NCBI GenBank assembly: GCA_963663225.1
Contig: OY760142.1
Location: 1,152,001 to 1,216,000 of the forward strand
Source of the DNA: Nitrospirota bacterium
GTDB taxonomy: Bacteria; Nitrospirota; UBA9217
Reading direction: 5' to 3'
DNA: 64,000 nucleotides
The translations under genes and the position numbers were made by a program. A model generated the notes under the pieces. The model was not told the DNA's origin. It saw nothing but the letters and a program-made list of their open reading frames with translations, and searched no databases. This document shows, piece by piece, positions 33,709 to 39,384 of this stretch (its first letter is position 1; each line of letters opens with the position of its first letter).

Positions 33709-33866
33709 CTATTTTATGGCTCCGCGAAGATGATAAAAAAGGGCAATGGCGAGAATTAATCTTGATAAATGAGAACTGAACTGTCAATAACGGGCGATTT
33801 ACCGAGTCGGCGTTAGTGACGATTTGCTCTCAAAGGTGATAGCATGTCTACCCTATTTATTCTGCA

Positions 33867-34853
33867 CTAAGTGAGATTTTCTTCTATTGCTCTTCCTAGT
33901 TGTTTTTCCCAGCCCTTACGATGAACTATTCTCGTAAAGCCACTCATCTTACCGCTGAGAAGATCAATACGGCTCATCTTGCTGAGTTTCGCCCAGTCTT
34001 CAAACATCACATAGATTGCGTTACCATATTCAAGATTCTCGAACGCAACAAGTTTATCGGTAAATTGCGCCCCAAAGTATCTGCGAAAACCATTAGTACC
34101 TCGAATAAAAGCAATTGGGTTAAATTTCAGCAGTAAATCATATCTTGAGGCAATCTTTTTTCTGAGTTCGTCTGAGGAAGATCGAAAACCAGAAAAAATT
34201 TTGCTTATTGTTTCATTTCTTTCACCCGTAGGAAGTATTTCCCATTCGAGATAAATAGTTTTTAAATAATCATCTAAAGTAGCCTCGCTCAGAAAGACGT
34301 CGATAATTCCAACATTTTCCTGTAGGAGATTTAAATTGCAAAGCAATTTTTCTTGATATTTTTTATCTATCTTACTCAAAACCTCGTTGACTATAAATTT
34401 TAACACATAAAACTTTTCACCCTTTATTTCTTCTCCTATTAACTCAATCTTAATTTCGATTAAACCCGGTGCAATATAATCTCGCTGATAGATTTCTTTT
34501 TCGAACTCAACTTCATGAGATCCTTTACTCCAATCTCCAAAATTTGGAGTATAAAAAGAATATTTTTTTGTTCGCATGGGTAAATCTTTTCGTACAACCT
34601 CAATACCATTTATGTTCCTTTTGGAATATTTTCCCACTTCTTCTTTAGGGATTAATGTGCTCGGAAATTGCACTTTACCATCTTTTAATTGGATCGACAG
34701 ATGCTTGTATTTGTTAGCGATAATATCGTTTACCGAAATTTTTTTAACACATGCTACAAGAAAATCTTTATTTGAAAATTTAACAATTTTGGCCATTATC
34801 CAACCCGGTATTTTGCGCAGATTCTGTTTCCAACTAATTTTATTTTTTTTCAT
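33867..34853 (-). CDS. Uncharacterised 328-aa cargo protein
   Basis: Long AT-rich ORF, GAGG before ATG; no family recognised. Confidence 0.8.
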   Translation of the reverse strand: MKKNKISWKQNLRKIPGWIMAKIVKFSNKDFLVACVKKISVNDIIANKYKHLSIQLKDGKVQFPSTLIPKEEVGKYSKRNINGIEVVRKDLPMRTKKYSFYTPNFGDWSKGSHEVEFEKEIYQRDYIAPGLIEIKIELIGEEIKGEKFYVLKFIVNEVLSKIDKKYQEKLLCNLNLLQENVGIIDVFLSEATLDDYLKTIYLEWEILPTGERNETISKIFSGFRSSSDELRKKIASRYDLLLKFNPIAFIRGTNGFRRYFGAQFTDKLVAFENLEYGNAIYVMFEDWAKLSKMSRIDLLSGKMSGFTRIVHRKGWEKQLGRAIEENLT

Positions 34854-34896
34854 ATCTTGTCCTCTTGGGTGTTGATTGTTATTTTAATTTGAGCAC

Positions 34897-34933
34897 AAAA
34901 AATAAGGGCAGATTATATGATTATAATCTGCCC
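34897..34933 (-). terminator. Intrinsic terminator between the 39-aa ORF and the cargo gene
   Basis: gggcagattata-N4-tataatctgccc then TTATTTTTT on minus strand. Confidence 0.75.
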
Positions 34934-34943
34934 CCACTTGCCA

Positions 34944-37368: not shown

Positions 37369-37592
37369 CTCTAGATAAAATAGAACAGTTAGTTAAAGTA
37401 CGTCAGAAGAATATTTTGCGCTATATTGAATTATTGGATTTACCGCAAGCGCAGTTTTCTACACTTCGCAAATTACTTTTTGATGAACTGGGTCGGACTG
37501 GACTTATCAAGGAATTAGCTGGGGTTTTAGGTAGTCAGGAACGAAACGGATCGGGCAGGAATATATTGAGCAAAGAAGGCGGTGCACCATGA
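37362..37592 (+). CDS. Small hypothetical protein
   Basis: 76-aa ORF overlapping the rep stop. Confidence 0.6.
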   Translation: MVTLDKIEQLVKVRQKNILRYIELLDLPQAQFSTLRKLLFDELGRTGLIKELAGVLGSQERNGSGRNILSKEGGAP

Positions 37593-37745
37593 TTGGGCAA
37601 GACAAAAAACCGTGAAGAACTTATCATTGATGCTAATATTTCTTTGCCGGATGAAATATCAGCGCCGGAAATTAGATTACTGGAATTTTTTTTCCCGGAA
37701 TTGTTAAAAGACGTTTTGATGCAAGTGGAACAAAATAAGGAGTAA
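37593..37745 (+). CDS. 50-aa acidic ORF immediately upstream of the integrase
   Basis: TTG-started (L/M)GKTKNREELIIDANISLPDEISAPEIRLLEFFFPELLKDVLMQVEQNKE fills the gap exactly. Confidence 0.55.
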   Translation: MGKTKNREELIIDANISLPDEISAPEIRLLEFFFPELLKDVLMQVEQNKE

Positions 37746-37749
37746 AATT

Positions 37750-39384
37750 ATGATTGTAGCTCTTTACGCTCGGGTATCAACGATTAAACAAGCTGAAAAG
37801 GATTTGTCAATTCCCGATCAGCTTAAGCAACTTCGCGACTGGTGCAAATCTCACAATCATACAATTGTTCATGAATATGTTGAGCCCGGTGCCTCAGCCA
37901 TGGATGATAAAAGGCCAATATTTCAACAAATGATAGGTGACGCTTGCGCCTCTCCCTCTCCTTACGGTGCGATAGTAGTACACAGCCTTTCTCGTTTCTT
38001 TCGTGATCATTTAGAGCTAGGTTTTTACGAGCGTCGTCTTAAAAAACATGGGGTTACTTTAATATCGATCACGCAGATTACGGGTAATGACTCTGCGGGA
38101 GAAATGGCACGAAGCATTTTCAGTTTATTTGATGAATATCAGAGTAAGGAAAATTCTAAGCACACGCTACGAGCTATGAAAGAAAACGCTCGACAAGGCT
38201 ACTTCAACGGTTCGAAGCCGCCCTATGGCTATCGAACAAAAGAACTTCCATTACTCGGAAGGAAAGGTAAAAAGAAGCAGCTGCAAATAGACCCTGCTGA
38301 AGCTGCTGTCGTCAAAAACATTTTTAAATTATATCTTTATGGGTACCAAGGCAGGATTATGGGCGTTAAGGGTATTGCCTCTCATCTTAACAACACGAGC
38401 ATTACTATGAGAGGTAGCAAGTGGACACCTACGCTTGTATATGATCTCCTTTCTAATCTTACTTATATCGGCGAATACTATTTTAATAAACGTGAAGCAA
38501 AAACGGGAAAGCTTAAGCCTCAATCAGAATGGATACAAATTAAAGTTGAACCGATTATTGACGTTGAGACGTTCAATGCTGCCGCAGAACGTCGTATTAG
38601 CCGTTCCCCTGCAAAGATACCACCCCGTATTGTGAGTTCTCCTACTTTACTAACCGGCCTTTTGTGGTGTGGGGAATGTGGTGCACGGATGACCCTTGCA
38701 ACCGGAAAAAGCGGAAAATATCACTATTACAAATGCTCGACACGGATCAAACAAATAGGTCAAAAAAGTTGTCAAAGTAATAATATACCAATGGAAAAGC
38801 TAGATAGCCTCGTTTTGCAAACTGTTGCAGACCGTGTTTTCAACCCTAAGCGAGTTAAGACAATATTGACAGAGCTTTTACGACGTCAAAAGATGTCTGA
38901 TGCCTCGCACGATAATCAGCTAAAACTATTAACAAAAGAATTAAATACGTTAAAAGACAAATCTGAACGTCTTTATGAAGCCGTTGAAACTGGTTTATTG
39001 CCGAGGGATATAACACTGCAAGAGCGAGTTCATAGACATCAGGCACGAAGGCAGGAAATACTGACGGAAATCGCAGGTCTGCGGCGTGATAAAGAATTAC
39101 CACTAAATAAGATCAAGCCGAGTCACGTTACTGCGTTCTGCTCGGCTTTGAAAAGCAAGCTGCAAGACAAATCTTCAAGCCTCGGCAAGGAATACTTACG
39201 GTTTCTTGTAAACGAAATCAGGGTTGATGGTAACAAAGTATCTGTTCGAGGAAGTCATGCAGCGCTTGCAGAGGCTATTACAAAAACAAAACTGGGCACC
39301 TCCAGCCCCGTAAGGGGATGGGTGCCCAGTTTTGGTAGTGGTTGGCTCCCCGGGCCGGACTCGAACCAGCGACAGGGTGGTTAA
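37750..39384 (+). CDS. Large serine recombinase (integrase)
   Basis: ALYARVST catalytic Ser, SLSRFFR, PPYGY recombinase domain, CGECG..YYKC Zn ribbon, coiled coil. Confidence 0.95.
   Translation: MIVALYARVSTIKQAEKDLSIPDQLKQLRDWCKSHNHTIVHEYVEPGASAMDDKRPIFQQMIGDACASPSPYGAIVVHSLSRFFRDHLELGFYERRLKKHGVTLISITQITGNDSAGEMARSIFSLFDEYQSKENSKHTLRAMKENARQGYFNGSKPPYGYRTKELPLLGRKGKKKQLQIDPAEAAVVKNIFKLYLYGYQGRIMGVKGIASHLNNTSITMRGSKWTPTLVYDLLSNLTYIGEYYFNKREAKTGKLKPQSEWIQIKVEPIIDVETFNAAAERRISRSPAKIPPRIVSSPTLLTGLLWCGECGARMTLATGKSGKYHYYKCSTRIKQIGQKSCQSNNIPMEKLDSLVLQTVADRVFNPKRVKTILTELLRRQKMSDASHDNQLKLLTKELNTLKDKSERLYEAVETGLLPRDITLQERVHRHQARRQEILTEIAGLRRDKELPLNKIKPSHVTAFCSALKSKLQDKSSSLGKEYLRFLVNEIRVDGNKVSVRGSHAALAEAITKTKLGTSSPVRGWVPSFGSGWLPGPDSNQRQGG
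39288..39333 (-). terminator. Element-supplied terminator hairpin downstream of tRNA-Asn
   Basis: aaaactgggcacc...ggtgcccagtttt, 9 nt after the CCA, T-rich tail on minus strand. Confidence 0.65.

Follow-up and report, generated by a model that had tools for sequence, protein, structure and literature searches.

Comparative evidence for a compact integrative element with a predicted Rep_trans-fold initiator and a large serine integrase at a tRNA-Asn gene of a Nitrospirota bacterium

Several described systems show parts of the organization analysed here. Integrative mobilizable elements (IMEs) of Firmicutes that carry Rep_trans or MOBT proteins, such as the streptococcal IME_oriT, are small, pair a recombinase with a Rep_trans nicking protein, lack mating-pore genes and carry variable cargo (PMC7563843, PMC6499999). 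The pT181-family initiators RepC, RepD and RepSTK1 have the Rep_trans fold, the motif R-x-Y-x-K-x-x-E with its catalytic tyrosine, acidic metal ligands and a hairpin origin with an adjacent site (PMC4797284). The ssrA islands of Dehalococcoides have a large serine recombinase (LSR) of about 540 residues, the CcrB-like DsiB, at their edge, target the 3' end of a small stable RNA, grow by tandem accretion and hold variable cargo (PMC3146451). Tycheposons target tRNA genes, contain replication genes and cargo or defence functions, and occur as tandem arrays and as degraded remnants at the tRNA (bioRxiv 10.1101/2020.12.28.424599). Integration at tRNA genes and rolling-circle replication of the excised circle are known from the pSAM2-type elements of actinomycetes (cited in PMC3146451). 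These likenesses recur at a locus that we analysed in a 64,000-nt stretch of a Nitrospirota bacterium (lineage UBA9217; assembly GCA_963663225.1, contig OY760142.1, forward-strand positions 1,152,001 to 1,216,000). This whole stretch is called the window below, and positions are counted from its first nucleotide.

From the comparison of this locus with its relatives we conclude, with a probability of roughly 0.8, that positions 33717-39342 are an intact integrative element of a widespread family, present in single copy in the 3.26-Mb host genome that was searched. With equally good confidence we assign to the family a fixed core in which a nick-site hairpin is joined by a small regulator, an initiator of the Rep_trans type (Rep), an open reading frame (ORF) of 60-76 codons, an acidic ORF of about 50 codons and an LSR. 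The features of the element are collected in Table 1.

Element borders and the tRNA-Asn insertion site

Related loci were retrieved by Rep homology, and 85 were compared; the metagenome matches used were 80 among roughly 330. An integrase homologue (39-76% identity) followed Rep in 71 of the 85 loci, at a spacing of about 385 nt that hardly varied; these loci retain the module of Rep, one or more small ORFs and LSR. Fourteen loci had no integrase match, and in 12 of these the contig ended within about 450 nt after Rep. The C-terminus of the integrase abutted a minus-strand tRNA gene in 38 loci (tRNA-Asn in 29, Arg in seven, Glu and Leu in one each), and the integrase stop codon lay inside the tRNA in 37 of them. 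The motif TGCCCA was invariant in all 28 right ends compared, within 23 nt before the tRNA tip; this invariance covers third codon positions, which suggests a constraint acting at the DNA level. At the left end, a layout consisting of the core TGGCTCC, 16 nucleotides of any sequence and TGrGCAmTGG, the mirror image of the right-arm motif, was found in 14 of 27 tRNA-Asn loci (13 distinct), and the window fits it exactly. Measured from both ends, the elements at these 14 loci are 4,500-9,619 bp long.

The tRNA-Asn(gtt) gene of the window was identified by ARAGORN and by Rfam (65.5 bits). The two copies of the core, at 33717-33723 and 39343-39349, are 5,626 bp apart from start to start, and the right copy is formed by the final 7 nt of the tRNA, which read TGGCTCC on the plus strand. 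A first-pass annotation of the window, made from its letters alone, had noticed both copies and had proposed that deletion of this interval places the tRNA 3' end 8 nt before a strong terminator. The coordinates and the terminator score, which is obtained on both strands, agree with this reconstruction of the empty site. The left hairpin has a 14-16-bp stem and a DNA folding energy of -17 kcal/mol (z -8.3), and it finishes 8 nt short of the left core. Related genomes with an unoccupied tRNA-Asn gene have a hairpin 8-12 nt past the tRNA tip, as judged by eye, which resembles the reconstructed empty site. The element's own hairpin behind the tRNA, likewise part of the first-pass proposal, was recovered at 39286-39334 with a T-run after it on the minus strand (DNA fold z -6.2).

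Joining the element ends yields a putative attP that is an imperfect inverted repeat of the form TGCCCAG ... core ... GGGCA, with 13-19 of 29 positions complementary among 14 elements. The centre of dyad symmetry falls within the 7-bp core in 10 of the 14, as would be required by a serine integrase whose crossover dinucleotide is central. GC content, a check suggested in the first-pass annotation, is low inside the element (0.31-0.43, compared with about 0.45-0.58 further out). However, the GGDEF gene on the left flank is also low in GC (0.41-0.45), so that GC content is no sharp marker of the left border.

The integrase combines the three domains of an LSR in one protein of 544 residues: Resolvase (PF00239, E 2.8e-26), Recombinase (PF07508, 5.3e-17) and Zn_ribbon_recom (PF13408, 2.5e-17). 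It also matches phrog_95 of PHROGs (4.7e-108), and its best NCBIfam match is CcrB (9.3e-41). The attachment sites have the short core and the mirrored TGCCCA and GGGCA arms of LSR sites. The serine integrase and the MerR-type gene of the first-pass annotation were both recovered as Pfam domains. The integrase ORF enters the tRNA gene antisense by 42 nt, so that its last 14 codons are tRNA-encoded, and its TAA stop lies in the anticodon loop.

These features suggest how the element would have been inserted. Borders and arms come from the comparison of relatives and the chemistry from the integrase family: the integrase would have recombined attP with the last bases of tRNA-Asn, and a crossover dinucleotide inside TGGCTCC would leave the tRNA whole. 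The predicted attP lies within the integrase gene itself. The protein therefore ends in the 14 tRNA-encoded codons when integrated; in the circular form, reading into the left end would give it another tail, of 20 residues. The hairpin of the P arm may replace the terminator that the tRNA lost on insertion.

Two other placements of the left border were rejected. A longer tRNA repeat further left was sought, and no further partial copy of tRNA-Asn was found near the element or elsewhere in the genome. The GGDEF gene is not part of the element, as a genome of the same genus has it, with 85% identity, next to the same large gene.

The Rep initiator and its candidate origin

The AlphaFold model of Rep (pLDDT 83.8) was compared with solved structures using Foldseek. 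The best match was RepSTK1 (4cij; E 9.2e-12, template modelling scores 0.43 and 0.55), followed by RepDE (4cwe, 3.5e-8; 4cwc, 4.2e-8), with a probability of 1.00; the next matches were to TBP, with E of at least 1.5e-3. Invariant in 28 of 28 Rep sequences were R181-x-Y183-x-K185-x-x-E188, R133-x-D135-x-x-x-D139, R210-x-E212 and D15. The catalytic residues described for RepDE are R189/Y191/K193/E196, R140/D142/D146 and R212/E214 (Carr et al., PMC4797284), and the spacing within the Rep motifs equals that of RepDE, the equivalence being one of motif spacing rather than of residue-level superposition. By this correspondence, Rep has the catalytic tyrosine and candidate acidic metal ligands. We therefore assign Rep to Rep_trans despite the lack of a Pfam match, on the basis of predicted fold and catalytic motif. 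As modelled, it is a Rep_trans-fold protein but no PF02486 member by sequence; the first-pass assignment was right as to fold and motif, whereas the corresponding Pfam match was not obtained.

Rep belongs to a large family. A word-indexed search gave 900 matches, the best 120 of which are 57-94% identical, with source names that include Desulfobacteraceae, Desulfuromonas, Syntrophales, Mariprofundus and Patescibacteria. An exhaustive search gave 1,891 cluster representatives at E <= 0.001, 76 of them at E <= 1e-30. In a sample of 401 genomes of the phylum, 15 matched Rep at E <= 1e-20, and nine of the 15 are close relatives.

The first structural element of the Rep model is a strand at residues 7-25. 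There is no helix-turn-helix (HTH) at the N-terminus, the sequence has no match to an HTH family, and the C-terminal domain is helical. MOBT relaxases, as reported from Firmicutes, have an N-terminal HTH fused to PF02486 (PMC6499999). Judged from its model, Rep looks more like a plasmid-type initiator than a MOBT relaxase. This bears on the idea that the element is an IME, in which Rep would act as a relaxase on its hairpin (an origin of transfer, oriT) and the strand would be exported through the type IV secretion system (T4SS) of a separate conjugative element. Rep_trans-family proteins do act as MOBT relaxases in integrative conjugative elements and IMEs, and IMEs may use serine recombinases (PMC7563843, PMC6499999). 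Moreover, Rep and the integrase are 54-66% identical across loci labelled with the five source names given above, which fits broad-host-range transfer. The missing HTH and PF02486 match and the plasmid-Rep-like C-terminal domain are unlike MOBT, however, and the host genome, which is 99% complete, has no gene for VirB4 (PF03135), AAA_10 or the T4 coupling protein (PF02534). We regard the IME explanation as possible, if on balance somewhat improbable.

A candidate site of action for Rep is a hairpin at 35838-35864, composed of CCCCCG, a loop ending in GTAACA, and CGGGGG, and followed by AAATACA. In 59 of the 66 loci with at least 600 nt upstream of Rep, this hairpin heads the rightward operon and is on the same strand as Rep; these include loci with Rep identities of only 34-45%. 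A strict regular expression gave 45 matches, one of which, in L028, is a different hairpin. It is the sole non-coding DNA block common to the relatives, and in larger elements cargo lies between it and Rep. In pT181 the nicked hairpin of the origin lies beside a binding site (PMC4797284), and by analogy the GTAACA-loop hairpin is likely to be the nick site of Rep. After excision, the circle would be copied by rolling-circle replication, with Rep nicking this hairpin, as fold, motifs and conservation suggest.

Small open reading frames, cargo and surroundings

The acidic 50-residue protein encoded directly before the integrase is a candidate recombination directionality factor. Of 48 loci, 42 have an acidic ORF of 48-55 codons that carries the motif AEI-x-LI-x(3)-L-x-ELL and ends where the integrase begins, among them alphaproteobacterial loci that have no 76-codon ORF. 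When the protein was modelled together with integrase residues 150-543, with alignments as input, the complex score was 0.62, compared with 0.00 for the best of three controls. Among solved complexes, 116 of 157 attain the mark for this score, as do 2 of 215 mismatched pairs. Separate runs shared at least 78% of contacts, and the pLDDT of the partner was at least 68. The modelled contacts involve integrase residues 346-380 and 449-504, which flank the coiled-coil at its exit from the zinc domain (300-359 in Pfam); a binding hotspot of directionality factors has been described at the junction of zinc domain and coiled-coil (PMC11795197). These models support, at the level of prediction, binding of the 50-residue protein to the integrase as a likely excision cofactor, and excision would then require the integrase together with this protein as directionality factor.

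Most relatives of the 76-codon ORF end about 16 codons earlier. A block of roughly 45-60 nt between this ORF and the 50-codon ORF, at 37536-37600 in the window and at the corresponding position of about 60 related loci, is conserved irrespective of reading frame and takes in the 3' part of the 76-codon ORF. Its consensus is roughly GGTAAGGCTCGGGCAGGAATACA ... GCAAAGAAGGGGTG ... ATGnGTG. The 50-codon ORF begins within the block, which also has a Shine-Dalgarno-like run, and its AATACA element is also present in the origin hairpin. Most relatives have an in-frame stop inside the block (TAA in 27, TGA in 16, TAG in 8), and the window reads through to TGA. Selenocysteine insertion or read-through was considered for the 76-codon ORF and rejected as a general explanation, the stops being mixed. 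RNAalifold found no base pairs in the conserved block, and an Rfam scan returned the tRNA as its sole match.

The ribbon-helix-helix (RHH) gene of the first-pass annotation has weak support, its family match lying below the Pfam cut-off. In some relatives, the gene upstream of Rep nevertheless shares an RHH-like N-terminus with this protein, and one such gene has an RHH_1 match. The MerR-like protein is probably a regulator. No homologue of it was found in the 85 related loci at E 1e-4, and its gene is part of the variable region.

The variable left half would be cargo, which in relatives includes defence systems and here comprises a 328-residue protein and the MerR-like regulator. The 328-residue protein had no match in Pfam, PHROGs, PADLOC or NCBIfam. 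Its model (pLDDT 85) gave nothing at E <= 0.001 in a Foldseek search of PDB, and the highest Z in a wide VIA search was 5.9, for a match confined to the C-terminal part. In an ESM Atlas feature search with a 54%-identical homologue, the nearest clusters were those annotated as Phage_CRI (0.93-0.95). This lead was rejected, since neither hhalign against the Rep family (probability 0.1) nor Foldseek agreed with it. In a survey of 58 cargo ORFs from 13 elements, most were without a match. Cargo recognized in relatives comprised XhoI with a methylase, a methylase with MTaX1-HNH, an OLD-like ATPase with UvrD helicase and ParA, T5orf172, DUF2971 and HNH genes; restriction-modification pairs were among it.

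Between the cargo gene and the MerR-like gene lies a 396-nt spacer, a candidate single-strand origin and/or small RNA. It contains a promoter-like site at 35118-35146 (TTGACA, 17 nt, TATCAT, with TG; 11 of 12 positions match) and a terminator-like hairpin at 35218-35239. Together these could produce a small RNA of about 90 nt that ends where the MerR-like gene ends. The spacer showed no DNA-level conservation in the relatives.

Table 1. Features of the element and its borders in the window
Feature	Position	Strand	Basis or remark
Native bidirectional terminator	33675-33710		Terminates GGDEF gene (+) and, in the reconstructed empty site, tRNA-Asn (-); chromosomal arm beside attL
Left core TGGCTCC, attL crossover region	33717-33723	+	attP dyad centre inside core in 10 of 14 elements
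Element-side attL arm (P' arm)	33724-33749	+	Ends in GGGCAATGG; mirrors TGCCCA motif of the other end
Cargo ORF, 328 residues	33867-34853	-	700 homologues; 46-63% identity in aligned set
Non-coding structured stretch, 396 nt	34854-35249		DNA fold z -5.1 (+), -4.8 (-)
MerR-family HTH protein, 175 residues	35250-35777	-	MerR_1 E 2.6e-12; divergent from Rep operon
Candidate Rep nick/binding site (double-strand origin or oriT)	35838-35878	+	Hairpin and AAATACA; DNA fold z -5.3
RHH-like protein, 92 residues	36009-36287	+	First gene of rightward operon; VAPB_antitox E 0.0011, below cut-off
Rolling-circle initiator of predicted Rep_trans fold, 362 residues	36280-37368	+	ATG at 36280; ORF opens at 36247
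Small conserved ORF, 76 residues	37362-37592	+	Overlaps Rep stop; homologue in 54 loci
Acidic 50-residue protein, candidate recombination directionality factor	37593-37745	+	Directly upstream of integrase
Large serine integrase, 544 residues	37750-39384	+	Three Pfam domains, PHROG, CcrB
Element-side attR arm (P arm, invariant TGCCCA)	39286-39342		Inside hairpin; T-run on minus strand
tRNA-Asn(gtt), target gene	39343-39418	-	Last 7 nt are the right core; ARAGORN, Rfam

The same tRNA is occupied by other elements. In the closest same-genus genome (L018, G004:C44), the tip of this tRNA-Asn gene is taken by another element, at positions 195-8460. The LSR of that element, of 534 residues, is 25% identical, reads into the tRNA and ends at the same TAA; the element also has an IS21-type insertion (IstA/IstB), a Rep_trans protein that does match PF02486 (5.5e-33, with Rol_Rep_N) and a small resolvase. 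Sites resembling attP, with the core between a P arm on the left and a P' arm on the right, were seen at three loci (L035 5337, L059/L060 1661 and 5702, and L074 117); they look like junctions of tandem related, non-identical elements or remnants at one tRNA. We conclude that the tRNA-Asn tip is an insertion hotspot in this bacterial family. A second island of the host genome, at tRNA-Glu (G000:C1:1865900-1875000; L121 7835-16703), has a tyrosine integrase, an Xis-like HTH_17 protein, a 103-codon ORF, a distant Rep homologue (E 7.9e-25) and type III restriction-modification genes; it has the same design with another class of integrase. To the right of tRNA-Asn, at 39550-40688, are genes for an MglA-like small GTPase (Arf/Ras matches) and a Roadblock/LC7 (MglB-like) protein, and this tRNA-Asn-mglA-mglB synteny is kept in most of the 40 related genomes searched.

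Mobility and comparison with known systems

Several observations weigh against an intact and mobile element. The bare core heptamer is at chance level, with 6 copies in the window and 7.9 expected. A composite pattern of core and family-derived left arm, in contrast, had 1 match in the window and none in 100 shuffles, and the right-arm pattern had 1 match, with 1 in 100 shuffles. The heptamer is therefore significant only together with the flanking arm taken from relatives, and we take the borders as proven by that comparison rather than by the heptamer alone. No TGGCTCC was present upstream in 12 of the 27 tRNA-Asn loci, including the long contig L039, and in one more the sole upstream copy lies within Rep. 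Two loci (L041 and L083) extend at least 0.8 kb past Rep with no integrase match, and the origin hairpin is missing in 7 of the 66 loci. Rep had no PF02486 match at E <= 0.01, its only match being Phage_CRI (E 0.0064; 16.7 bits against a cut-off of 21.7), and a Rep profile searched against PDB sequences gave nothing below E 1.

The comparison of related genomes proposed in the first-pass annotation confirmed both ends and the core module, but a true empty-site allele was absent from five same-genus genomes: at tRNA-Asn one has other genes, one a different element and three other neighbours. The genes in the first of these are an ordinary set (histidine kinase, aldehyde dehydrogenase, aldo-keto reductase, AraC) that separates the GGDEF gene from the tRNA by 6.9 kb. 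The junction search proposed at the same time failed to give the expected result. Eight sequencing runs from four studies contain the element, with no RNA run among those listed. Neither a circle junction nor an empty-site junction was seen in the assemblies of runs X1, X2 and X5, which contained the integrated form only; since contigs drop rare variants, this absence is weak evidence. The single joint, from 39114 back to 36207 in X5 (depth 4.7, side 62), does not correspond to a circle junction. A terminal overlap of at least 15 nt, as expected of free circles, was found in none of the 85 related contigs.

Occurrence of the integrated form alone is what a fixed, immobile island would show, and such fossils exist. 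In one related genome (L015, G019:C1), what is left of a family member before tRNA-Asn is about 100 nt, with the 3' end of the integrase gene, the hairpin and P arm; this looks like a deletion scar that retains the part serving as tRNA terminator. In the window, however, all seven ORFs of the element are open, the catalytic motifs are intact, and the family consensus is matched by the origin hairpin and by both attachment arms. We consider a fossil of past integration quite unlikely and retain the view that the element is intact.

As the first-pass annotation had stated, no capsid, T4SS or coupling-protein family was recognized in the element in Pfam, PHROGs, PADLOC or NCBIfam, and no terminase small subunit or pac-type function was recognized there. 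Its further claim, of an IME or phage satellite dependent on a helper, holds in that an intact integrative element with the borders it gave is confirmed by the 85 loci; for the proposed dependence on a helper, the search of the host genome, in which no helper was found, gave no support. The label of IME or satellite is one that we infer from missing genes.

A minimal satellite of the PICMI or PLE type would be excised and replicated on a phage trigger, and its concatemers would be packaged in helper capsids. The small size, the integrase and initiator, the absence of packaging genes and the defence cargo of relatives all agree with this proposal. PICMIs are described as small, with reduced gene content, no capsid-remodelling genes and concatemer packaging (PMC10803314), and PLE papers include work on a satellite recombinase. 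One relative is catalogued in IMG/VR, but it was the only one found among 2.9 million viral contigs, and none of its other ORFs matches Pfam. The lack of a recognizable terminase small subunit, capsid or pac-type function also speaks against a satellite, as does a host genome with no HK97 capsid gene and with one Terminase_6N match below cut-off, in which a virulent helper would nevertheless be invisible. Overall, a phage satellite seems doubtful to us.

The Phage_CRI match of Rep, and two Rep homologues with a precomputed PF05144 match, raise the question of whether the element is a satellite or remnant of a filamentous, inovirus-like phage, with a gpII-like Rep and regulators but no morphogenesis genes. 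RS1 of CTXphi would be an analogue, and a size of about 5-7 kb fits. On the other hand, no Zot/pI ATPase was found in the element or the host genome, no coat-like small membrane ORFs were recognized, the structural matches are plasmid Rep_trans proteins and the cargo is of the defence type. This origin is very improbable.

The element encodes what integration, excision and replication need and nothing else for mobility, so it might also be a self-sufficient integrative rolling-circle plasmid. Such a plasmid would do without a dedicated helper, and vesicles, natural transformation or cell lysis would spread it. Tycheposons have been reported in vesicle and capsid fractions (bioRxiv 10.1101/2020.12.28.424599). 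We consider this explanation unlikely, given that none of the related contigs looks circular and that passive spread is a poor fit to the high conservation across phyla. For the integrative element preferred here, transfer between cells would depend on outside machinery or passive routes.

A bolder proposal, in which we have little confidence, is that these elements form a class of their own, so far undescribed, of integrative mini-replicons that replicate themselves, ranging from bacteria of the candidate phyla radiation to this bacterium of about 50% GC that encodes MglA and MglB. One DNA stretch would serve as attP, integrase C-terminus, replacement tRNA terminator and state switch. The integrase tail, tRNA-encoded when integrated or W-L-P...G-[Q/H]-W when circular, would set the direction of recombination together with the 50-residue partner; Rep would be both replicase and transfer initiator at the GTAACA hairpin, and the whole would act as a cross-phylum shuttle for defence genes.

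If the element is what we conclude, a compact and widespread vehicle moves defence and other cargo between distant phyla with a core of just four or five genes and a single tRNA tip. The integrase, its attachment sites and the 50-residue candidate factor would be test objects for the steering of serine integrases, as Rep and its conserved hairpin would be for the replication of small elements after excision. The integrase gene would be a natural case of a gene rewritten by its own reaction, and the 328-residue cargo protein is a candidate new defence or accessory gene.

The first-pass remark that few examples have been described is about right: the literature covered, with subscription journals and supplements outside that coverage, gave no description of a family of Rep_trans and LSR elements at tRNA tips. 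None of the closest described systems combines a Rep_trans-fold initiator, an LSR gene spanning attP and insertion at a tRNA tip. In the actinobacterial element pSAM2, the integrase is of the tyrosine type and is accompanied by Xis, and the element has an FtsK-like transfer gene of its own. The intP/intX gene of myxophage Mx8 is alike in that attP lies inside the integrase gene and integration rewrites the integrase C-terminus, but Mx8 is a complete temperate phage whose integrase is of the tyrosine type. Compared with the Firmicute IMEs, Rep lacks the HTH and PF02486 and has a plasmid-Rep-like C-terminus, and the element has a non-Firmicute host, a tRNA tip as target and no conjugative helper that we found. 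Compared with the pT181-family initiators, Rep is only about 16% identical and resides on an integrating element beside a serine integrase rather than on a free plasmid. Of the 937 tycheposons, 910 use tyrosine recombinases; as described, they also encode polymerases, primases and helicases, have partial tRNA repeats and are typically 10-20 kb long (bioRxiv 10.1101/2020.12.28.424599). In the Dehalococcoides islands, the repeat measures 20 bp and the integration module comprises six genes, and according to their authors the islands apparently have no genes for independent replication (PMC3146451), whereas the element described here has a 7-bp core, a Rep protein and an integrase ORF that crosses the site of insertion.

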